Shown piece by piece: positions 6,385 through 63,065 of a stretch of DNA of 64,000 nucleotides. Position numbers and translations under genes: made by a program. The DNA comes from an uncultured Clostridia bacterium. Lineage in GTDB: Bacteria; Bacillota; Clostridia; TANB77; CAG-508. Every line of letters starts with the position of its first letter. Within the stretch, counting starts at the first letter, position 1. A model generated the notes under the pieces. It saw only the letters and a list, made by a program, of their open reading frames with translations. It was not told the DNA's origin and ran no database searches. The stretch spans positions 53,135-117,134 of the forward strand of contig CAUWAM010000002.1 in NCBI GenBank assembly GCA_963556825.1, given 5' to 3'.

Positions 6385-6705
6385 CTAAATAAATCTGCTT
6401 AATCCTAATGTAAAAGCTATTGCTGTTAATATTATTCCAATAAAAAAAGAAACCACTTTGCTTTTTATTTGCTTTTTAGTTTCTTCATAGTCCTTTGCAG
6501 GCTTTTCTTCTATTATTTTTAATCGTTCATTCATTTTGTTTTGGTCTTCTCTCATTGCTTTCATTTCTTTTGCTATTTCTCTTACACTCATTGTTAATTC
6601 ATATATATTTTCAACTTTATTTTCAATAGTATCTATTCTTTTTATATTTGATTTTGAACGTTGTTCGTTTTCAACTAATCTTTCTAGAATTTCTGTATCT
6701 TGCAT
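6385..6705 (-). CDS. XhlA-like lysis accessory protein (coiled coil plus C-terminal TM)
   Basis: 106 aa with a charged coiled coil then VVSFFIGIILTAIAFTLGL. Position upstream of holin/amidase matches the PBSX xhlA-xhlB-xlyA arrangement. Confidence 0.6.
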   Translation of the reverse strand: MQDTEILERLVENEQRSKSNIKRIDTIENKVENIYELTMSVREIAKEMKAMREDQNKMNERLKIIEEKPAKDYEETKKQIKSKVVSFFIGIILTAIAFTLGLSRFI

Positions 6706-6723
6706 TGTCTACACCTCCATTTA

Positions 6724-8918
6724 TTATTTGGTTCTTTTCCATACAAATACAGCTATGTATGGAATTGCATGTGTGTGTGAATTTACACTATGTGTGTGAT
6801 TAGACAATGTATGTGTATGCCCTTTTCCTCCACCAGTAGAACCTGTATTTTCTCTATTGTTTGTATCGACTCCTCCTCTATTGGTTCCTGCTGAATATAC
6901 TCCTGAAATTTTTTTAAACATTGTATGGGTATGTGAAGGTATTTGATCTATTGTTAAAACTGTACTTCCTGTTGTATTTGTACTTGGTCCTCCAGTACTT
7001 CCACTTGATGCGCCTGTGTTTGTACCTGTTATACTAGATTGACCATAACTAGTACTAGCTCCATACAAGAAACCACTTTTTATCCTTTCCCATGTTCCTC
7101 CAAATAAAGTTGATGGATTTGTACTATTTATACTCATATATATTGAACCAACAGGGTATATCTTATTTACTATCGCACTTGCTAAATTTGTTCCTAATCC
7201 TGTAGCATTTATCTTTCCATTTACCTGTAATTTACTTCCTTCATTTGTATCATATTTTTGCCCTATTGCAATATTATTTTTATATACAGCTATTGCTGGA
7301 TTTCCACTTCCTAAAATAATTGTAGTAGTTGTTGTTGATAATTTATCAGATATAGTTAACTTAATATCATAAGAATTAGAAACGTCAAATCCATCTGTTC
7401 CTTTATCTCCTTGAATATTTAAACTACCAGTTATTTTGTTTTCAGAAATAGTATAAGTTAGTGTTGTTTTTCCTTCTATCCAATTTGAATTTGAAGTTGT
7501 TTTATAACTATATTTACAACTTGTAACTGCATTTGCTACACTACCAAAATTCGAATTCCAAAACTCTCCTTCAAATTTTAATGTTGTTATTGTACCAATG
7601 TTATTTTGTCTTGTTGCTGACAATGATTTTATTTTTATATTATTATAATTTTTTATAGTTGCTGTTTTACTTACTTTTGTACTATTACCTCTACTGTCTT
7701 CCGCATATATATCTATAACATTTGTATCTATTGCTGGTATTGACATATTCACATCAGCATTAGAACTATAATTAACATTTGCATTTTTACTTCCTATTAG
7801 CATTTTATAACTTTTCATTGTAGCACTATTTTTTGATACTGCTTTATTTGTTGCACTTATAATTGCCTTTACATTAGAATATCCCTTTACTAATATTTGA
7901 TTATTTCCTGTTAAAGCAGTTATTGTAGTATTTGTATCTTGATATATAAAATTGCTAAATGTCGGATTACTATTTACTACTGTAAACGTAAAATCTTTTG
8001 AATTTGTATAAGATTTTCCATTTTGAGCAGTTGTTATAACATATCTTGCTTTGTATGTATTACTATTAGGTGTTAGTGAGTATATTTTTGCTGCTGTCGG
8101 TGTTATTGATTTGCTTGCACCTATTACTGTTCCATAATCAATAATACTTGTATTATCTGTTTTACATAATTTTAAACTTATACTAGCTCCGCTTGGATTG
8201 TTCCAAGTTATTGTATGACTACTTCCAATATTAACATTAGGCACTGAACTTAATGTAGCAATTTGATGTGTTGTAACTTCTATTGTATTAGACTCACTAT
8301 ATAATTGACTATCTAATCTTTTTACCTTTATTTTAAAATTATATTTAGTATTTGGAGATAATCCAGTTATATTTATTGGAGAAGTTAAGGCATAACCACT
8401 TTCCCAATCTCCTCCATTTTTACTAACCCATATCCCATCTATTGTAGAATCTGATGAATAATTAAGTTTAACACTATTTACAGTCTTTGAGTGTAGAGAA
8501 ATACTTGCTTTCGCATATCTAGGAATTGTAGATAATTGTAAATTTCCACTCGGATAAAAATCACCTGGGGAATATGTATGAGATTGAAAGTCTATAACAG
8601 CACTACAATTATAGTCTTTGTTCCATCAGAATTATGAGCTATTGTCATTGTTCCTTCTGCAAATGTTATTACTCCATTATGTCCTAAACTGTATTGCCCG
8701 CTTCCGTTTTTTACTATATTTCCATTTATTGTTATACTATAACTTGCATTTAATGCACTAAATCTACCAGAATTACCAGAAATTAATTGTAATCTGTATC
8801 CAACATTTGAAGTATTAGAAGCTATGTCATAGCTATTTTCCCAAACACTTAATTTTCCTGTGTAATATTTTGCATATGTACCACCACTACTACCACCATT
8901 TTGTGTAAATTCTGCCAT
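6724..8918 (-). pseudogene. tail fibre / receptor-binding protein (DUF859-like N-terminus, HxH-rich C-terminal tip), frameshifted
   Basis: ORF 8592..8918 (…TIAHNSDGTKTIIVVLL*) continues in the -1 frame, which is open from 8625 to 6724 (…NCSAVIDFQSHTYSPGDF…). C-terminus is GGTWERI…HTHT…GHTHTLSNHTHSVNSHTH. Confidence 0.75.
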
Positions 8919-37598: not shown

Positions 37599-37736
37599 TT
37601 TTCCACTCTCCTTAAATATCTTTTTTATAATCGTATTCTATCATATATTTTTTTAAAAATATACCCTTTTGAGGAAATTTTTGGAATTTAATTTTTAATT
37701 TGCTTTTTTTAGTTATAAAATAGATTTTACAAAATA

Positions 37737-37770
37737 AAAAAGATAAAGTTTATTACAACATTATCTTTTT
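37737..37770 (-). terminator. terminator closing the pilin-like island
   Basis: AAAGATAA…TTATCTTT followed by a T run on the minus strand. Confidence 0.55.
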
Positions 37771-37844
37771 ATCAACTATTTATATTCGAAATTGATTGAT
37801 AGCTTGATGTTTCATTTTCAACTTCTTTTGTTTTTATAATATTA

Positions 37845-39164
37845 TTAATATTTATATCCTATTATTTTTACAGGAATACAAGTAAAATTAACTTTGTTTG
37901 TACTTCCCCAATAACTTGCTTTAGCTTTAAATGCAGTATAATTTACATATTCAAAATTTCTTTTAACTACTTTGTTCGAATATCCTGATCCTGATATTAA
38001 AGCAAAAGTATAACCTTTATAAACTCTTTGGACCTCATAATCTGGTTCAGTATTATAAAACTTAAATATAACATCAAAATAGTCATAATTGTCATTTGCC
38101 AAATTTATTATTTGTCCTTCCTCAAAAGACTTATATTCTTTATCTGGATTTTCCCATAAAGTTTGTCCTACTACTTGTGAATCTCCTGTTTCTTGTACTG
38201 TCATGTAATTATCAATATAACTTTCATATTTATAGCCTATTATTTTTACAGGAATACAAGTCTTATTATTTTTGCTTGTACTTCCCCAATAACTTGCTCC
38301 AGCTTTAAATGTAGTATCATTTACATATTCAAATTTTCTTCTAGCTACTTTGTTCGAATATCCTGATCCTGATATTAAAGAAAAAGTATAACCTTTATAA
38401 ACTCTTTGGACATAATAATCTGGTTCAGTATTATAATACTTAAATATAACATCAAAATAGTCATAATTGTCATTTGCTAAATTTATTGTTTGTCCTTCTT
38501 CAAAAGAGTTATATTCTTTATCTGAATTTTCCCATAAAGTTTGTACCACTACTTGTGAATCTCCTGTTTCTTGTGCTGTCATGTAATTATCAATATATCT
38601 TTCATATTTATAGCCTATTATTTTTACAGGAATACAAGTCTTATTATTTTTGCTTGTACTTCCCCAATAACTTGCTCCAGCTTTAAATGTAGTATCATTT
38701 ACATATTCAAATTTTCTTCTAGCTACTTTGTTCGAATATCCTGATCCTGATATTAAAGAAAAAGTATAACCTTTATAAACTCTTTGGACATAATAATCTG
38801 GTTCAGTATTATAATACTTAAATATAACATCAAAATAGTCATAATTGTCATTTGCTAAATTTATTGTTTGTCCTTCTTCAAAAGAGTTATATTCTTTATC
38901 TGAATTTTCCCATAAAGTTTGTACCACTACTTGTGAATCTCCTGTTTCTTGTGCTGTCATATAATTATCAATATATCTTTCATAATCATTTAATATTTTC
39001 TCTTCATTTTTTGTTGCATTTTCTGTTGCATTTTTTGCTTGTTTGGCATTTTCAAATAATCCTGTGTTTGTTATTGCTTGTATGCTTATTCCTGCTAATA
39101 TTAACAACAAAATTATTGTTATTACTAATGCTACAAGTGTTATACCTTTACTTTCACTTTTCAT
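37845..39164 (-). CDS. pilin-like-leader surface protein with three 126-aa tandem domains
   Basis: MKSESKGITLVALVITIILLLILAG leader, with RBS ggggga before the second ATG. Followed by 3 x 126-aa repeats. Confidence 0.7.
   Translation of the reverse strand: MKSESKGITLVALVITIILLLILAGISIQAITNTGLFENAKQAKNATENATKNEEKILNDYERYIDNYMTAQETGDSQVVVQTLWENSDKEYNSFEEGQTINLANDNYDYFDVIFKYYNTEPDYYVQRVYKGYTFSLISGSGYSNKVARRKFEYVNDTTFKAGASYWGSTSKNNKTCIPVKIIGYKYERYIDNYMTAQETGDSQVVVQTLWENSDKEYNSFEEGQTINLANDNYDYFDVIFKYYNTEPDYYVQRVYKGYTFSLISGSGYSNKVARRKFEYVNDTTFKAGASYWGSTSKNNKTCIPVKIIGYKYESYIDNYMTVQETGDSQVVGQTLWENPDKEYKSFEEGQIINLANDNYDYFDVIFKFYNTEPDYEVQRVYKGYTFALISGSGYSNKVVKRNFEYVNYTAFKAKASYWGSTNKVNFTCIPVKIIGYKY
37848..38981 (-). 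repeat. 3 x 378-bp in-frame tandem repeat
   Basis: Units are 38604-38981, 38226-38603 and 37848-38225. The first two look identical wherever I compared them at nucleotide level and encode identical protein. The third is diverged. Confidence 0.9.
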
Positions 39165-39218
39165 TTTCCATTCCCCCATTTTTATATTTATATTCTTTTA
39201 AATTGTTATTTTTTAAAG

Positions 39219-39279
39219 TCAAAAAGATAGCAATATTAACTTGTACCTAATTTTGATTTAAGTATAATATTCCTACCTT
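39219..39279 (-). terminator. leader hairpin plus T-run (attenuator-like), copy A
   Basis: Minus strand AAGGTAGGAATATTATACTT-(loop)-CAAGTTAATATTGCTATCTT then TTT. About 20-bp AT-rich stem with one mismatch and one bulge. Confidence 0.4.
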
Positions 39280-39352
39280 TTATTTTATTATTTACTAAAC
39301 CACCTATGCGTGTGTATATGTATATTCCCGCAACGATTATAGCGTTTTTCAT
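39236..39352 (-). CDS. candidate 38-codon leader ORF, copy A
   Basis: MKNAIIVAGIYIYTRIGGLVNNKIKGRNIILKSKLGTS. Weak RBS aaggaaaa. Its stop codon lies inside the 3' arm of the hairpin. Confidence 0.3.
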   Translation of the reverse strand: MKNAIIVAGIYIYTRIGGLVNNKIKGRNIILKSKLGTS

Positions 39353-39494
39353 TTTTATTTTCCTTTTCTTTTGTTTTGTTTCACTTTTAATATAAGTTAT
39401 ATTATCATATGTTATATATTTTTGTCAAGTAATTTATTCTAGAAGTATAGCATTTTGTTGTTAGTAAACAAGAAACCTCCCCTTTAATATAATT

Positions 39495-40832
39495 CTACTT
39501 AATATAAAGTACCACACGGAAACCGATGCCATGATGAGTGTGCATAACGGGGCAAACGCCGTAGCGGCGGCACGCAGGATCTCCGCTAGAATTGTCAAGG
39601 TAATCGCCTCCACGAATCACGCGGTATTGACCACTAGTTGCATGATGTGAATCTTCTTCTGTCCACTCCCATAAGTTACCTGCTATATCAAATATATGAT
39701 ATTTCTCTGTTGTTGCACTTGCACCTGTTGTTAATAAATCTCCTTTGTTTTCGTTACTAGTTACATAATCCTTTGTAGTAGATGTTTCTGTACTACCAAA
39801 CACTGGTAAGTACCAATAATTAGAAGAATAATATGCTGTTGCTTTTCTTCCTGTATATTCTATTGCTGTATTCTTATAATTTCCCCAAGAACTACTATTT
39901 GTCATATCAGAACTTGTTAAGTCTGTTTTATTTATTAATGTATTTAATATTACATCCCATTGTGTTCCTGTAATCAAACCACTACTTACATAATTGTTAT
40001 TATACATACTTTCTGCATTTGCTTTTGAATGTGTCCAATCTACAAAGTTCCAAGGTGCTAACCCTGCTTTACTTTGTGGTATTTTATATACATTATATAC
40101 TTGGTTATGTCCTGCACTTTTTTGTGTAGAAGTAAACTCTGACATATCACTCGCAAGTCCTGCTTCATATCTTCCTACATAAAATCCACCATATTTTTCT
40201 ATTTGTGATAATTCTGCTTTTGGTATTGTTGTATCCCATCCAGCATTTTGTTTTTCCCAAGATGTTTTTGTATATGCACTTGTTGAACAAGGTATCCATA
40301 CAAATTGATTTCCTGTTAAACTTGTTGTATATGCATATGTTGTTTTGTCTGTTGTTCCATCATATTTATCTGCTTCATTATCTGATATTATTACACCTGT
40401 ATCAAGATTTCCACCTACATAATAAAATCCGTATGGTACAGGTACGCTTTCTCCACCACCTACTGATACTGCATATACTGTTGCTACTTTTGTAACTTCT
40501 GTTGTTTCTAATCCATTGCTTGTTTTTATATATTTAACTGTTTCCGTTCCCCATTCATTTGGTAATTTTACTATTGTTCCTAGATCTTGTGGATCTTCTG
40601 TCGTATTTTCTGGTAAGTCTTTGTTATACTCTGCTAATTGTTTTTCTAATTCATTCAAACTTTGTTCTTCTGCAATTTGTGCATTAATATATTCTTGTTT
40701 TGCTTGTTGTGCTCTATTTATCAAGCCATTATCCCCCATTAGAGTTGCAATTGTTATTCCTGCTAATATTAACAACAAAATTATTGTAATTACTAACACT
40801 ACAAGTGTTATACCTTTACTTTTATTTTCCAT
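39495..40832 (-). CDS. pilin-like-leader protein with C-terminal FGE/SUMF1 (C-type-lectin-fold) domain
   Basis: MENKSKGITLVVLVITIILLLILAG leader. GGFYVGRYEAG, GNLWEWTEE, RGG…IGFRVV motifs. Confidence 0.8.
   Translation of the reverse strand: MENKSKGITLVVLVITIILLLILAGITIATLMGDNGLINRAQQAKQEYINAQIAEEQSLNELEKQLAEYNKDLPENTTEDPQDLGTIVKLPNEWGTETVKYIKTSNGLETTEVTKVATVYAVSVGGGESVPVPYGFYYVGGNLDTGVIISDNEADKYDGTTDKTTYAYTTSLTGNQFVWIPCSTSAYTKTSWEKQNAGWDTTIPKAELSQIEKYGGFYVGRYEAGLASDMSEFTSTQKSAGHNQVYNVYKIPQSKAGLAPWNFVDWTHSKANAESMYNNNYVSSGLITGTQWDVILNTLINKTDLTSSDMTNSSSWGNYKNTAIEYTGRKATAYYSSNYWYLPVFGSTETSTTKDYVTSNENKGDLLTTGASATTEKYHIFDIAGNLWEWTEEDSHHATSGQYRVIRGGDYLDNSSGDPACRRYGVCPVMHTHHGIGFRVVLYIK
39508..39640 (-). 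other. candidate DGR variable region (VR1)
   Basis: About 56% G+C by hand count over 39511-39630, in an AT-rich gene. 23 of 26 codons between RGG and IGFR are NNY. Confidence 0.4.
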
Positions 40833-40880
40833 TTTAGTCCTCCTTTTCTTTTTTTACTTTTAATACATATTTTTCCCTAC

Positions 40881-41990
40881 TTAATCTGATAATTTCAGTT
40901 GAACACTAGACTGAAGAGAAACTAGCGGGCAAAACGCACGATTGTGGTTAAAATTGCTGTAGTCCACATTGTTCACATTGCCCCCCAGAACAAACATCAC
41001 AGCGATATCGTTGCTAGATGAGGGAGATGCTAACCAGTAATATTGGTTACTTCCTGGCCAATACATGCTGTCTATTTGACTATCTGTTTGTACTGTATAA
41101 TTTGATGTATTAGTATAGTATCCATCTACTGCTTTTGAATTTGTTGTAGGACCAACTCCATATCCATAATTGCTACTATTATATGGATATTTATAAAATA
41201 ATCTTGTTCTTGGTGATGTTTCTGTTCTTTCTGTATTATCTGGTGTAGCATTTGTTAGATTATAATGAGTATTGAAACCATCCATCATCATTTCCAAACT
41301 TGGTGCCCCTACTATATAATTTACTTTACTTCCTATTTCTGTACTTGCTCCTGATGTTACTAAACCTTCCCAATTATTTGTATTTGTTAGCCATGTTACT
41401 GCTTTCATATTAGAATTAATAGATTTAGGTGGCGTTACTCCTGGCTTATATAATTCTGGATTTAAATTTCTTATTTTTATATTTTCTGCTGTATCAAAAC
41501 TTATATCTGTCATTGGCAAATTATAATTATTTGAAGTACAATCTGCTTTTAAGTATACTGTTCCTGCTCCATCTTTAAATTTATTGTCAAAATCAATATA
41601 ATATAGTCTATATGTTGTAGAAAATGTATAATTACTTGAACCTACTTCTACACTTTCCGTCCCACCTACGGTTTTATAATTTGTTACCTTTTTTCCTAAA
41701 TATTGTCCAAAGTTATCTTTGGTTAATATTACTTTACTTCCATTTGCTAGTGTTACTTCTACTCCACTTCCGCTATTTCCACCGTCTTGTTCTGTTATAT
41801 AGTCTGATAAATTTGAAAGCATTTGTTCTTCCTCTTGGGCTGTTTTTTTATATTCATCTATAGTTTTTTGGGCTTTAGCGATTATGCCTCCATCTGTCAT
41901 TTTTCTTATTACTACTGCTGACAAAATTAATAATATTACTATTGTGATTACTAACGCTACGAGTGTTATCCCTTTACTTTTATTTTCCAT
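40881..41990 (-). CDS. pilin-like-leader protein with DUF1566-like C-terminal module
   Basis: MENKSKGITLVALVITIVILLILS leader, with ggagg RBS before the internal ATG. C-terminus is YWLASPSSSNDIAVMFVLGGNVNNVDYSNFNHNRAFCPLVSL. Confidence 0.65.
   Translation of the reverse strand: MENKSKGITLVALVITIVILLILSAVVIRKMTDGGIIAKAQKTIDEYKKTAQEEEQMLSNLSDYITEQDGGNSGSGVEVTLANGSKVILTKDNFGQYLGKKVTNYKTVGGTESVEVGSSNYTFSTTYRLYYIDFDNKFKDGAGTVYLKADCTSNNYNLPMTDISFDTAENIKIRNLNPELYKPGVTPPKSINSNMKAVTWLTNTNNWEGLVTSGASTEIGSKVNYIVGAPSLEMMMDGFNTHYNLTNATPDNTERTETSPRTRLFYKYPYNSSNYGYGVGPTTNSKAVDGYYTNTSNYTVQTDSQIDSMYWPGSNQYYWLASPSSSNDIAVMFVLGGNVNNVDYSNFNHNRAFCPLVSLQSSVQLKLSD
40929..41012 (-). other. candidate DGR variable region (VR2), Asn-codon rich
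   Basis: About 47% G+C by hand count over 40921-41030. AAT/AAC/GAC/TAC/AGC/CAC/TGC codon run. Confidence 0.3.
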
Positions 41991-42046
41991 TTGCTCTTCC
42001 TCCATCATTTTTATATTTTCATCGTTTTAAATGTTGTTTTTTAACG

Positions 42047-42107
42047 TCAAAAAGATAGCAATATTAACTTGCACATGCTTTTGATACAAGTATAATATTC
42101 CTACCTT
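42047..42107 (-). terminator. leader hairpin plus T-run (attenuator-like), copy B
   Basis: Same arms as copy A (42088-42107 and 42052-71), a different loop, and a T5 run following. Confidence 0.4.
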
Positions 42108-42134
42108 TTATTTTATTATTTCTTTTTTTATTTA

Positions 42135-42200
42135 CTAAATTACCTGTGTGTGTGTGTGTGTGTGTGTGTGTACTCCCTCAACGATTATAGCGTTTTTCAT
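42135..42200 (-). CDS. leader ORF copy B, currently truncated by repeat-dependent frame
   Basis: MKNAIIVEGV(HT)4QVI* with (CA)13. The frame homologous to copy A would continue to a TAA at 42064-42066. Confidence 0.3.
   Translation of the reverse strand: MKNAIIVEGVHTHTHTHTQVI
42145..42170. repeat. (TG)13 / (CA)13 dinucleotide microsatellite
   Basis: 26 nt of perfect TG repeat. The homologous position in copy A is a degenerate gcgtgtgtatatgtatat. Confidence 0.95.
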
Positions 42201-42267
42201 CTTTATTTTCCTTTTCTTTTGTTTTATTATTCATATTGAAAACTTACTTCAAAAGTATCTTTTTCAA

Positions 42268-43146
42268 TTATTTTAATTGGTTCATTACTTCTTCTGCGAA
42301 GTTTTCTTCTTTTTTCTCAATTCCTTCACCTTTTTCAAATCTAGCAAATGAAATAATTTCTGCATCTTTTTCTGTTAATAATTGAGAAACTTTTTTGTTA
42401 GGATCTTTTACAAATGGTTGATCTACTAAACAAATTTCTTCATAGAATTTTCCAATTCTTCCTTGAACGATTTTTTCAGCTATTGCTTCTGGTTTTCCTT
42501 CGTTCATTGTTTGTATTTTTAAAATTTCCATTTCTTTTTGTACTCTTTCAGCTGGTACTTCGTCTTGTTTTACATATTCTGGTCTAGCTGCTGCTATTTG
42601 CATGCATATGTCTTTTGCAACTTCTTCTGTTCCTTTTGACATGTTTACTAAAACAGCGATTTTTCCATCACCATGGATATATTTTGCAACTAATCCTTCT
42701 GATTCAAATCTTGCAAATCTTCTTATTGATAGGTTTTCTCCTATTGTAGCAATTTTACCAACTAATGCTTCTTGAACTGTTTTTCCTTCTTCGAATTCTG
42801 CTGGTTGTGCTAATAATTCTTCAACATCTTTTGGATTTTTATCTACTACTTGTTTTGCTACATTTAAAACAAATGCTTTGAATTCAGCATTTTGTGCAAC
42901 GAAGTCTGTTTCTGAATTCACTTCTACTATTGCTCCAACTTTTCCATCTTCTGAAATGCAAGCTTCTACTAATCCTTCTGCTGCAATTCTTCCAGATTTT
43001 TTAGCTGCTTTTGCAATTCCTCTTTCTCTTAATAATTCCATTGCTTTTTCCATGTCTCCATCTGTTTCTGTTAAAACTTTTTTGCAGTCCATCATTCCTG
43101 CACCTGTTTTTTCTCTTAGTTCTTTTACTAAACTTGCTGTAACCAT
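42268..43146 (-). CDS. tsf: elongation factor Ts
   Basis: MVTASLVKELREKTGAGMMDCKKVL…; 292 aa. Confidence 0.95.
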   Translation of the reverse strand: MVTASLVKELREKTGAGMMDCKKVLTETDGDMEKAMELLRERGIAKAAKKSGRIAAEGLVEACISEDGKVGAIVEVNSETDFVAQNAEFKAFVLNVAKQVVDKNPKDVEELLAQPAEFEEGKTVQEALVGKIATIGENLSIRRFARFESEGLVAKYIHGDGKIAVLVNMSKGTEEVAKDICMQIAAARPEYVKQDEVPAERVQKEMEILKIQTMNEGKPEAIAEKIVQGRIGKFYEEICLVDQPFVKDPNKKVSQLLTEKDAEIISFARFEKGEGIEKKEENFAEEVMNQLK

Positions 43147-43269: not shown

Positions 43270-44040
43270 TTATTCTTCTTCGCTAGCTGCTACAACTTCT
43301 TCCATTGATGCTGGTTCTTCTGAGATTTCTTCTGCTACTTCTTGAGCTTCGAAACTTTCTCCTTGTTTTCCTTCGATTATTGCATTTGCCATAACGTCTG
43401 CTATTAATTTAACTGCTCTTATAGCATCGTCATTTCCTGGTATAGCATAATCTACATCTTCTGGATTACAGTTTGTATCAACTAATCCAATTACTGGTAT
43501 ATTTAATTTTCTAGCTTCTAATATTGCTATTCTTTCTTTTTTAGGATCTACTAAGAATATAACTCCTGGTAATTTGTCCATTTCTTTGATTCCACCTAAG
43601 TTTCTTTCTAGTTTTTCCATTTCTTTTTTAAGTAATATTACTTCTTTTTTAGGTAACACTTCAAATGTTCCATCTTCTTGCATTGCTTCTAAGTCTTTTA
43701 ATCTTTGTACTCTTGCTCTGATAGTATCGAAGTTTGTTAACATTCCTCCTAACCATCTTTGATCAACATAGTACATTCCAGATTTGATTGCTGCTTCTTT
43801 CATGCACTCTTGTGCTTGTTTTTTAGTTCCTACGAATAGAACTGTTTTTCCTTCTTCTGCTTGTTCTTTTAAGAAAGCATAAGCTTCATCTAATTTTTTA
43901 GATGTTTTTTGTAAATCGATTATATGGATTCCGTTTCTAGCTTGGAATATATATTCAGCCATTTTAGGATCCCATCTTCTTGTTTGATGTCCAAAGTGAA
44001 CACCTGCTTCAAGTAATTGTTTCATTGCAACTACTGCCAT
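43270..44040 (-). CDS. rpsB: 30S ribosomal protein S2
   Basis: [27 protein letters not shown]. Strong RBS gggagga before the 44040 ATG; the tool's start at 44073 is less likely. Confidence 0.95.
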
Positions 44041-44148
44041 TTTAAATTCCTCCCTTTTTGTTTTTACTTCCATAAAGTTCTACATTTAAACCGGACCAAT
44101 TCTTGGCACACCCTTTTAAACTTGCTTTATGTGATTAATACGTTTTCT

Positions 44149-61545: not shown

Positions 61546-62997
61546 TTATTGTTTAAATCTTATTTTATCAATTTCATAATTACTTTTTATTTCTTTTTGA
61601 CTTAATTCTCTGTTATATATTCTTATTGCCCCAAGTTTCATTTGACAAAACAATGCATCTCCTGCTCTAGAACCTAAATATATTGGATAATTTAAAAATT
61701 TGGTATTAGATATATCATAATTGTTACCACTACTCTCATTTAATTTTATGTATTCACTATCTTTATAAAGTTCAATAAATGAATTATATTTTTTATTTGT
61801 ATTTATAATTGCCGTATAAACACTTAATGTTTTAGGTTCAAAAACATTATCTCCAGTATATTTTAAATTATATCCCCTTTCATGATGATATGTAATACGT
61901 ATATTATTAATTCCCCCTTCATTAATAGTAATACCATATCCAGTATTATTTTCATTCCAATTTCTTGAGGATTCAAAAATCATTTGTGTTTTTTGATTAT
62001 CACTTATATCCAACAATACAAATTGAACTGTTATAACATTACTTTCTTTATAATCAACTTCAGATATTGTCTTTGCAAAATCATCAATACCATCAAATGA
62101 TAAATATTTATCCCCCCAGATTGCTCCTGTTATTTGAGCATCATTATTACTTTGACTCAGATCTTTCCATATAGTAGTATCTGAACTATGTTCATTTTCT
62201 CCTAAATTATTTATTGCATCATAAGATAATATAAGACTATCTGAAACATACTCATTATAAAGAGTCATTGACTTCATTCCTAATGAAACTTCATCTCCAT
62301 GAACAACACTTATCGTATATTCTCCTGGCTCATTAATATAAAAAGTTAATTCATTTGAAGTTTCCCAAAAATCATTTGTTATCAATTTATATTTAATCTG
62401 CCAATTACTAACATATCCATCATATTTAATGTTTGATACCTCTACTTTCCACCTATTTCCCTCTTTTTGTGTATTAATTTCAAAACTTCCTGTTTGTGGA
62501 TTTTTATTATTATATTCAACATTATACTGTCCATTTTCTAATTGCTCAGTCATATAATATACTTTATCTTTGTATTCAAAACCAATATAACTAACAACAT
62601 ATCTTTTTTCCACATTAATAAGATATGGTCTTGTTACACTATCTAATTCTAAATTTTCTTTTATCCATTCCTTACTACAATATCTAAAACCATTTTTTAC
62701 TTGTTCTATTTCTTCATTTGTTTTATCTTTATATATAATTTTTTTTATTTCATCTATTTCTAATACTGATATTTGATTATCAGTTAATTTTTCTCCTATA
62801 TCTGTTTTATTGTTTTGATTTAATTCATTCACTTTTGTCTGCATAACTTTTAATTCTGAGGTAAATTCATTATATGCTGCATAATCAATGGCTTGTTTCC
62901 AAGAAATTATACCAACAGATGCTAATATTAATAATATGATTATCATTACAACTAACACCATTAATGTTATCCCTTTTTCTTCTTTTATTTTTTTCAT
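61546..62997 (-). CDS. pilin-like-leader protein with C-terminal LamG/concanavalin-like domain
   Basis: aggagga RBS. MKKIKEEKGITLMVLVVMIIILLILA leader. C-terminal …LSFDGIDDFAKT…IRIYNRELSQKEIKSNY. Confidence 0.7.
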   Translation of the reverse strand: MKKIKEEKGITLMVLVVMIIILLILASVGIISWKQAIDYAAYNEFTSELKVMQTKVNELNQNNKTDIGEKLTDNQISVLEIDEIKKIIYKDKTNEEIEQVKNGFRYCSKEWIKENLELDSVTRPYLINVEKRYVVSYIGFEYKDKVYYMTEQLENGQYNVEYNNKNPQTGSFEINTQKEGNRWKVEVSNIKYDGYVSNWQIKYKLITNDFWETSNELTFYINEPGEYTISVVHGDEVSLGMKSMTLYNEYVSDSLILSYDAINNLGENEHSSDTTIWKDLSQSNNDAQITGAIWGDKYLSFDGIDDFAKTISEVDYKESNVITVQFVLLDISDNQKTQMIFESSRNWNENNTGYGITINEGGINNIRITYHHERGYNLKYTGDNVFEPKTLSVYTAIINTNKKYNSFIELYKDSEYIKLNESSGNNYDISNTKFLNYPIYLGSRAGDALFCQMKLGAIRIYNRELSQKEIKSNYEIDKIRFKQ

Positions 62998-63020
62998 TGG
63001 TTTCCTCCTATACAAAAATT

Positions 63021-63065
63021 GCTTTTTTGCGAGATGCATATATAAAACTCCCAACGCAAAAAAGC
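63021..63065 (-). promoter_or_regulatory. 5' leader hairpin upstream of the LamG pilin-like gene
   Basis: 11-bp perfect stem GCTTTTTTGCG/CGCAAAAAAGC with a 23-nt loop, followed by AATTTTTG on the minus strand. Confidence 0.35.

Follow-up and report, generated by a model that had tools for sequence, protein, structure and literature searches.

Two repeat-bearing leaders between tsf and pyrH

The 64,000-nucleotide stretch analysed here (the window), part of contig CAUWAM010000002.1 of an uncultured Clostridia bacterium, carries two paralogous leader regions upstream of genes for pilin-like proteins. Each leader combines a short open reading frame (ORF), bearing a CA repeat or the remnant of one, with a terminator-like hairpin, and the two are considered as candidate phase-variation switches. 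Both lie on the minus strand, where the order is rpsB, tsf, leader B, pilin-like genes 1 and 2, a promoter, leader A, pilin-like gene 3, pyrH, frr, uppS and cdsA. The GC content of the window is about 26 %. Related contigs and loci are referred to by L numbers.

The leaders can be aligned over about 215 bp, from AAAACAAAAGAAAAGG to the pilin-like start codon, with blocks of identity interspersed with divergent blocks. This agrees with an earlier note on this DNA, which had described the regions upstream of both operons as paralogous. Three pairs of blocks (39218-39243 and 42046-42071; 39260-39279 and 42088-42107; 39331-39352 and 42179-42200) are present in exactly two copies in the 64 kb with 0 mismatches, against a chance expectation of at most 0.04. 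The features of the two leaders are as follows.

42209..42213, minus strand: Shine-Dalgarno (SD)-like AAGGA of leader B, 8 nt 5' of the ATG, read from the sequence; an AAGGAG equivalent is kept in relatives
42135..42200, minus strand: leader ORF B in its present frame, 21 aa (MKNAIIVEGVHTHTHTHTQVI), ending at a TAG-TAA double stop; predicted OFF
42145..42170, minus strand: (CA)13 repeat, (TG)13 on the plus strand; TRF 13.5 copies, 100 % matches
42064..42200, minus strand: predicted read-through (ON) span of ORF B when the unit number is divisible by 3, from the L049 allele and the frame table
42050..42109, minus strand: terminator-like hairpin B, consisting of an A-tract, an interrupted stem and a T-run (42049-42053) followed by GAC; -22.5 kcal/mol, z -5.9
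39401..39428, minus strand: sigma-70-type promoter of leader A, TTGACA-16-GATAAT, 11/12 matches; relatives have promoters at the equivalent place
39236..39352, minus strand: leader ORF A, 38 aa (MKNAIIVAGIYIYTRIGGLVNNKIKGRNIILKSKLGTS), with SD AAGGA at 39361-39365, 8 nt before the ATG
39305..39326, minus strand: decayed repeat tract of copy A (ATATACATATACACACGCAT), aligned to copy B
39222..39281, minus strand: terminator-like hairpin A, with a T-run at 39221-39225; -17.0 kcal/mol, z -4.0

The (CA)13 repeat is the sole long perfect dinucleotide tract in the window, and the number of its units determines where ORF B ends. The three frames of copy B stop 6, 11 and 82 nt after the tract, and the hairpin spans +40 to +92. 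At 13 units the ORF ends early, as the earlier note had stated, at a double stop 11 nt past the tract, leaving 25-29 nt between the stop and the hairpin's first paired base. At 12 units it is 44 aa long, its last residues being GNLVNKKRNNKIKGRNIILVSKACAS, and its TAA (42064-42066) lies inside the 3' arm. ORF A also has its TAA (39236-39238) within the 3' arm, with the stem ending about 10 nt further. The claim that the leader ORF reads across the 5' arm and stops in the 3' arm is thus correct for copy A and for copy B at 12 units (L049), but not for copy B at 13 units.

To compare alleles at this locus, same-strain metagenome contigs were obtained by exact-protein look-up of the window EF-Ts and of the 38-aa ORF. 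Six contigs whose flanks are identical over the 230 nt compared differ in the tract only. Five independent contigs have (CA)13 and the 21-aa ORF (L001 and L048 being one contig), while L049, which belongs to a different sample of the project that also yielded L046 and L047, has (CA)12 and a 44-aa ORF that was called by the gene caller and ends at the same hairpin TAA as is used in copy A. An exact-flank metagenome scan for further copy B alleles gave 0 matches. This polymorphism suggests that the (CA)13 tract of copy B is most likely a phase-variation switch. Thirteen contigs, of which 10 were listed, have an identical ORF A annotated as a gene. The tract is the same on every contig read, and the decayed tract of copy A is fixed in the read-through frame.

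Leader hairpins and the genes downstream

Minimum free energy (MFE) and centroid folds of the whole leaders gave one dominant hairpin each, with an interrupted stem of about 20-25 predicted pairs and the tail CUUUUUG (CTTTTTG in the DNA). The earlier note had proposed a stem of about 20 bp followed by a T run and enclosing a divergent loop. The stem was recovered, but the T run lies partly within it, paired to the upstream A-tract. The apical part of the hairpin does differ in sequence between copies A and B, yet it pairs in both. No match to Rfam 15 was found in the window at the gathering score, nor at E <= 1 within 39100-42300.

Comparison of the leader with its relatives showed that hairpin pairing is kept through both compensatory and wobble changes. 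Six window-type hairpins share a 22-pair consensus, in which five pairs have compensatory changes and several have one-sided wobble changes; here too the apical helices are unlike in sequence, yet both pair. Pairing holds for 99.3 % of cells in the GCTATGTGTTTTAG subfamily, where the variation at 11 of the 18 pairs is one-sided, always from A.U to G.U or from G.C to G.U. On the opposite strand, or in a cruciform of the DNA, such variants would give C.A mismatches, which argues against a protein-bound DNA palindrome and suggests that the hairpin acts as sense-strand RNA. A site working at the level of DNA, whether an operator for a dimeric regulator or a recombinase or invertase site, would account for the long palindrome kept in both copies, and a small Spo0A_C-like DNA-binding gene is present upstream in L002. 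However, the sequences of the arms vary among leader families while the pairing stays, and the G.U changes pair in sense RNA only. No recombinase gene adjoins a leader in the loci read; the only one seen, for a phage-type integrase, lies some 4 kb upstream of the leader in L002. A DNA-level site is accordingly very improbable, and an inverton or recombinase site was rejected on account of the wobble-type changes together with the lack of an adjoining recombinase gene in these loci.

A terminator scan found no terminator-like site on the minus strand between tsf and leader B (42200-42268). Since leader B is not preceded by a tsf terminator and related strains have tsf, a terminator and pyrH in succession, hairpin B would in its OFF state probably also end the rpsB-tsf transcript. 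The genes flanking the leaders are listed below.

43270-44073, minus strand: rpsB, from the gene order in the window
42268..43146, minus strand: tsf (EF-Ts), upstream of leader B; Pfam EF_TS E 8.5e-76
40881..41990, minus strand: pilin-like gene 1, 369 aa from MENKSKGITLVALVITIVILLIL; weak N_methyl and GspG N-terminal matches, sub-cut-off
39495..40832, minus strand: pilin-like gene 2, 445 aa, with an FGE-sulfatase-like C-terminus; Pfam PF03781 E 6.4e-7
37845..39164, minus strand: pilin-like gene 3, 439 aa from MKSESKGITLVALVITIILLLIL, with a 3 x 126-aa internal tandem repeat

Gene 1 is also annotated as 369 aa on contigs L046 and L047, and gene 3 as 439 aa on L051 and L052; the true starts of these genes are probably 41990 and 39164 instead of the first ATGs in the ORF list. 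Gene 2 starts 48 nt past gene 1, has no leader of its own and is presumably co-transcribed with gene 1 under leader B. All three proteins begin K-G-I-T-L-V-A-L-V-I-T-I followed by a hydrophobic helix, resembling the N-terminus of a type IV pilin or pseudopilin. The prepilin-type motif KG|ITLVALVITIIILLIL is present, with Ala at residue +5, where the G|F/M-T-L-x-E motif has Glu. Scores were sub-threshold for both Pfam N_methyl (18.3 bits, cut-off 21.2) and TIGR01710 GspG (14-16 bits, cut-off 88.85), so that 'pilin-like' is used as a description and not as a family assignment. A scan of 19 window ORFs revealed no pilus machinery. Gene 1 has 1018 homologues, almost all gut-metagenomic, and none is named among the 120 matches listed. 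The tandem repeats of gene 3 (3 x 378 bp, 126 aa, at 37848-38984, 96 % identity) are a likely source of length variation in the surface protein.

The gap between tsf and pyrH (window 37599-42267) is a variable insertion site by comparison with L181 (2380-2571) and L191 (2380-2820). Related strains have tsf, a terminator and pyrH directly, or have another pilin-like gene, with a Big_2 domain and without a repeat leader, in between; the window has an island of two leaders and three genes and no tsf terminator. The tsf variants of related strains had been considered as extra leader alleles and proved instead to be empty or differently filled tsf-pyrH sites. Elsewhere in the window, a 502-aa ORF with a Laminin_G_3 (concanavalin-like lectin) domain (61546-63054) possibly encodes another surface protein, and genes for a germination protease and YtxC mark the organism as a spore-forming Firmicute.

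A leader family in uncultured gut Clostridia

Relatives of the leaders were sought in two ways. The first was a leader-blind, protein-guided scan with one genome per species. This recovered 42 pilin-like-gene loci in metagenome-assembled genomes (MAGs) of uncultured gut "Clostridia", "Erysipelotrichaceae" and "Clostridium sp.", with many pilin-like paralogs per MAG. Tracts of (AC)8-14 or (AG)10-17 were found at 18 of the loci listed, all on the gene strand and, in all but L010, upstream of the matched pilin-like gene (L010 and L044 are the same contig region). The usual order in the loci read is a promoter, AAGGAG, ATG, 8-12 codons ending in GTA, the repeat, a stop-rich TTTAGTAAA-like box and a big A-tract/stem/T-tract hairpin, and nhmmer finds homology between the 5' part of the leader and each of the window copies (E 1e-7 to 1e-13). 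In the frame table, two frames stop 6-35 nt past the tract, while the third stays open for 60-190 nt in a context of about 75 % A+T and ends 8-15 nt before the end of the stem. Distances after the tract were as follows.

L010: long-frame stop ends at 168 nt, stem at 176 nt
L012: long-frame stop ends at 190 nt, stem at 203 nt
L013: long-frame stop ends at 141 nt, stem at 154 nt
L018: long-frame stop ends at 70 nt, stem at 80 nt
L020: long-frame stop ends at 70 nt, stem at 80 nt
L029: long-frame stop ends at 151 nt, stem at 166 nt
L032: long-frame stop ends at 124 nt, stem at 134 nt
Window copy B: long-frame stop ends at 82 nt, stem at 92 nt

The 64 %-identical homologue in L002 has the same arrangement without a repeat and with a different hairpin. 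Of the two decayed tracts in L007 one is in the open frame and the other is not, which mirrors copy A. One or two copies of a GC-richer structured repeat of about 128 nt (TATTATAGTTTTTGCGCCTTGCTGTCGCAAATTCC...CTATAATA, e.g. L028 at about 2712-2840) lie between the leader terminator and the pilin-like gene in L021, L028, L032 and L037; its predicted free energy is about -33 kcal/mol, it looks like a miniature inverted-repeat transposable element (MITE) or a repetitive extragenic palindromic (REP) element, and it has no Rfam match at E <= 1.

The second approach was a metagenome scan with the pattern AANCSTTGNNNNNGTA(SA)6, which contains neither an SD nor an ATG. It returned at least 120 loci, mostly from human gut assemblies, and the counts that follow refer to the matches listed. 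An SD and an ATG open into the tract in the GTA frame in 95 of 116 matches, compared with 5 and 7 in the control frames. Across the relatives, tracts comprised (CA)7-25 or (GA)10-20. Among 49 leaders that were non-identical, not fusions and had a called terminator, 24 had the long-frame stop 8-27 nt before the end of the stem, mostly at 11-17 nt, against 6.1 +/- 2.3 (maximum 14 in 200) for dinucleotide shuffles. The stop codon of most such leaders is in the loop or the first bases of the 3' arm, and this placement recurs across several hairpin families with different stem sequences. Repeat number differed in six of seven clusters of near-identical leaders (e.g. 10/14/15/15/16 and 8/18/18/25 units). 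The open frame is now present in about 7 of 37 attenuator-type leaders, fewer than one third. In all, the design is present at well over a hundred loci of uncultured gut Clostridia of humans, rabbits and other hosts, often several per genome. Among the matches listed, the closest to the window leader is L174, with the peptide MKNARILAGV-(CA)16-…DTG before its stop and the basal stem AAGATAGGAATATTA…TAATATTGCTGTCTT, followed by L138, L094 and L146.

The earlier note had favoured control of read-through by leader translation, and the predictions of that model at the level of sequence were all backed, namely by the SD and ATG frame, the stop placement, the 12- and 13-unit alleles and a precedent in Streptococcus gallolyticus described below. 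It had offered as a second reading that GCTATAAT in the first conserved block is a -10 box and the ORF fortuitous; the box would then belong to the pilin promoter and the CA tract to a 5' untranslated region. There is a perfect TATAAT in both copies, and L174 has TAGAAT at the same place. Most relatives, however, read TGAAAG, TAAAAC or similar, without the final T; no -35 match was found; and a canonical promoter precedes the leader SD in copy A, as canonical promoters do in relatives, where they lie 45-75 nt 5' of the leader ATG. Nor would a fortuitous ORF be expected to keep its SD and ATG in frame so far above the controls. This second reading has hardly any likelihood.

Two further candidates were rejected. 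A GCTATC/GATAGC motif upstream of homologues gave rare matches, so that the hairpin sequence is not the conserved element, and long-range pairing of the conserved CCTTG with a downstream CAAGG, present in L100, is absent from the window. A nucleotide segment, CSTTG-N5-GTA, is conserved directly before the repeat in all leaders (window 42171-42186 and 39327-39338). In every leader recovered by the leader-blind search its Leu codon is CTT, although TTA would be the expectation at 26 % GC; the metagenome scan pattern itself fixes CSTTG, and its matches cannot test this conservation. The segment is conserved beyond the need of the peptide and may point to a further function.

The same cassette is also found fused to structural genes. 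In ten loci (L024, L036, L071, L072, L101, L103, L131, L145, L175 and L179) the productive frame runs directly into a pilin-like N-terminus, for example MKKQYDESLGAV(HT)24DILKNKK-GITLVALV, and in other loci the cassette leads into different N-terminally anchored proteins. The occurrence of fused and split forms indicates a general phase-variation module for surface proteins in the clade, of which the window would have the split version, an upstream ORF working with a terminator. The fused forms would also fit the leader ORF being a relic, the severed 5' end of a once-fused phase-variable pilin gene, with the hairpin as terminator of the relic or of tsf and the downstream genes driven independently. 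In keeping with this, the tsf-pyrH gap is an insertion hot-spot whose contents differ among related strains, and some relatives have promoter-like sites between hairpin and gene. In the window, however, the U-run and the pilin start are only about 55 nt apart, and the scan called no promoter-like site in this interval. Furthermore, an SD, an ATG, an open frame and a stop within the hairpin would not persist in a relic over some 37 diverged leaders, and copy A is identical base for base on 13 contigs. A relic is considered unlikely.

Several further features of the family were observed. A third leader class, MQKIANRVSLGAV-(CA)9-13, was found in L061, L070, L098, L099, L106, L113, L126, L159, L165, L176 and L180; its long frame of 62-109 aa crosses a strong hairpin (+57 to +115) and stops about 90-215 nt beyond. 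Attenuator-type leaders also head genes that are not pilin-like and encode small membrane proteins in L100, L134, L178, L148 and L150, and the product in the first three (MKKVKTIIVIILLILLLPIIIVN...) resembles, by eye, a membrane-anchored signal peptidase. The pilin-like genes of L024, L029, L036 and L037 (MAG CANRBO, Lapin-028__bin4) share a +1 frame break about 35 codons into the gene, at ...ATT/TTA-C-GGA-GAT-AAT-GG..., read CGG AGA TAA, where intact paralogs have L-G-E-N-G. A programmed +1 frameshift, an assembly artefact or gene conversion that has spread a pseudogene feature could account for it. The homologue in L002 (P0002, 64 % identical) adjoins bAvd and reverse-transcriptase genes (6674-8516), which are markers of a diversity-generating retroelement. 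The FGE-sulfatase fold, found in window gene 2 (39495-40832), is a common target of such retroelements, and the family may combine phase variation with targeted hypermutation.

A predicted slippage-controlled terminator

It is probable that each leader is a stochastic on/off switch, in which a slippery repeat is coupled to translation-dependent transcription termination. Transcription would begin upstream of the leader, in copy A at the promoter at 39401-39428 and in copy B probably through read-through from rpsB-tsf. A ribosome would load at the leader SD and ATG and translate (CA)n as His-Thr repeats, the unit number deciding the reading frame past the tract. In two frames a stop 6-11 nt past the tract would release the ribosome about 25-30 nt before the hairpin; the A-tract/stem/U-tract structure would then form behind RNA polymerase, terminating transcription and leaving the pilin-like genes OFF. 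In the third frame, reached in copy B when the number of units is divisible by 3, the ORF stays open across the 5' arm, and its stop falls within the 3' arm, about 10 nt short of where the stem ends. The ribosome would sit on the 5' arm with a footprint reaching the 3' arm, so that no hairpin would form, the polymerase would continue and the genes would be ON. Slipped-strand mispairing at replication would alter the unit number and flip the state heritably and reversibly. On this scheme copy B, with 13 units, is predicted to be OFF for genes 1 and 2, and copy A, which has lost the perfect repeat, to be fixed in the ON frame for gene 3. This is the central point, which the earlier note had not named: the CA tract would make the device a stochastic phase-variation switch and not a metabolite-sensing attenuator.

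The same frame logic predicts an identical outcome if leader translation acts through Rho-dependent termination or RNase attack on untranslated RNA, with ribosomes in the ON frame protecting the transcript and the hairpin serving as a stabiliser or processing site. Stops in the OFF frames do expose 60-190 nt of naked RNA. This explanation nevertheless accounts neither for the placement of the stop 8-27 nt before the stem end in several unlike hairpin families nor for the A-tract/U-tract terminator signature on every hairpin. The leader RNA is, in addition, A-rich and C-poor, and such RNA is a poor substrate for Rho, judged by what is generally known of rut sites. This explanation is considered improbable.

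Some observations weigh against a slippage-controlled terminator. A single variant allele, of 12 units, is known at this locus, and it could be a strain difference or a repeat assembly error instead of switching within a population. The window hairpins are AT-rich, with few G-C pairs and a G.G mismatch (common to the closest relatives), and their U-run is just 5 nt long and partly inside the stem. A simple terminator scan does not call them, because the loop exceeds 8 nt and G-C pairs are few, and they were assessed by RNA folding and comparative analysis in its place; termination at the hairpin, like ribosome occlusion and the ON and OFF phenotypes, is a prediction from these data. Between tsf and leader B, promoter matches were weak and by eye only, with none in the promoter scan; transcription of copy B is assumed to be read-through from rpsB-tsf, which is the probable source. 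Among relatives, L007 and L013 have the hairpin separated from the pilin gene by 300-600 nt that include a promoter-like site, which would weaken the coupling at those loci, and in L005 and the third leader group the ORF continues well past the hairpin.

A closely similar device is known from the sortase-pilus loci pil1 and pil3 of S. gallolyticus, where a leader ORF with GCAGA repeats precedes a stem-loop of -18.7 kcal/mol (Danne, Dubrac, Trieu-Cuot and Dramsi 2014, PMC3894217). A leader peptide ending at least 28 nt before the hairpin gives low expression and one ending within or after it gives high expression, and mutants of the start codon and stop codon and deletions of the terminator support ribosome-induced destabilisation of the terminator (PMC3894217). 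Both systems have a promoter, an SD, an ATG, a short repeat-bearing leader ORF and a stem-loop terminator ahead of pilus or pilin genes, with terminators of similar strength (-18.7 and -28.2 kcal/mol in pil1/pil3, -17 and -22.5 here). In both, a frame shift through unit number decides whether the ORF ends before or within/after the hairpin, two loci per genome have the same device and repeat number varies among strains. There is, however, no homology in the repeat, the leader peptide or the hairpin as published, so that the likeness is one of mechanism and not of descent. The repeat unit is 2 nt (CA or GA) here and 5 nt (GCAGA) in pil1/pil3. One frame of three is predicted to be ON here, whereas the in-frame state of pil1/pil3 is OFF and both out-of-frame states give long peptides, and the controlled genes encode type-IV-pilin-like N-termini instead of sortase/LPXTG pilins. 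Most leaders of the present family, unlike pil1/pil3, stop in the loop or where the 3' arm begins, and they belong to a very large family with a conserved cassette that is also fused in frame to the structural gene. The pil1/pil3 switch is proven by mutants. For the one described here, sequence establishes the ORFs, their frames, the hairpins, the repeat polymorphism and the conservation across the family, and the switching itself is predicted.

The nearest physiological analogue, as regards direct occlusion by a ribosome, is pyrBI of Escherichia coli, which is sensitive to uridine triphosphate (UTP): its leader ORF runs through the attenuator hairpin, and a ribosome close behind the polymerase blocks the terminator. 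As proposed here, the ribosome occludes the hairpin directly and no antiterminator hairpin is needed. The signal in pyrBI, polymerase pausing at low UTP, is physiological and graded, whereas here it would be a heritable change of frame in the repeat. The trp, his and thr attenuators also have a short leader peptide, a terminator hairpin and coupling of translation to transcription, but rely on stalling at regulatory codons and on competing antiterminator and terminator hairpins, where one strong hairpin is predicted here. No antiterminator hairpin competing with the terminator was present in the MFE or centroid folds of either whole leader, and no run of codons for a regulated amino acid was found beside biosynthetic genes, Glu-Arg replacing His-Thr in the (GA)n relatives and the downstream genes encoding surface proteins. 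The Glu-Arg codons of the (GA)n relatives led to the rejection of an attenuator sensing His and Thr, and make it unlikely that any specific amino acid is sensed.

Other phase-variable systems share parts of the design. In cwpV of Clostridioides difficile an invertible element creates a terminator in one orientation. The leader of this surface-protein gene, likewise from a member of the Clostridia, has an intrinsic terminator that is phase-variable, but the switch works by site-specific DNA inversion, without repeat slippage or leader translation. The opa (CTCTT) and pilC (poly-G) genes of Neisseria vary through in-frame repeats in regions coding for signal or leader peptides. The fused relatives L024, L036, L071, L101 and L179 are similar, having the tract in an N-terminal presequence where changes of frame would switch the protein, whereas the window copies are unfused and would act through a separate upstream ORF and a terminator. 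The general class of in-frame repeat phase variation has been reviewed (PMC3894217). Apart from S. gallolyticus pil1/pil3, no other switch combining repeat slippage in a leader ORF with a terminator was found in the literature searched, in which this leader family was not described either, and a 2025 review on phase variation makes no mention of intrinsic terminators that are gated by slippage of a repeat in a leader ORF. The switch mechanism would thus be one already known, though barely documented, while the family is apparently undescribed, and its logic appears to have arisen in gut Clostridia independently of S. gallolyticus.

Taken together, the data lean towards a contingency-locus system of uncultured low-GC gut Clostridia that is large and apparently undescribed. 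Its portable cassette, SD + M..x(S/T)(L/V)x(A/G)V + (CA)n/(GA)n, would head many surface-protein genes per genome in two interchangeable modes, either fused within an N-terminal presequence before the pilin-like G|ITL or as a separate upstream ORF that stops within or beside the loop of an intrinsic terminator. Gene callers are prone to miss or miscall such leaders and the frame-shifted fused genes, and the design offers a rule by which the ON or OFF state could be read from sequence alone in metagenomes. As a compact and portable switch, it could be examined in surrogate Firmicutes. If this reading is true, terminators gated by ribosomes through repeat slippage would be a widespread regulatory principle of the gut microbiome, extending beyond one streptococcus, and abundant uncultured commensals would vary their pilin-like surface proteins stochastically, with most copies OFF. 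Some of these proteins adjoin diversity-generating retroelements, which bears on immune evasion, phage receptor variation and colonisation.

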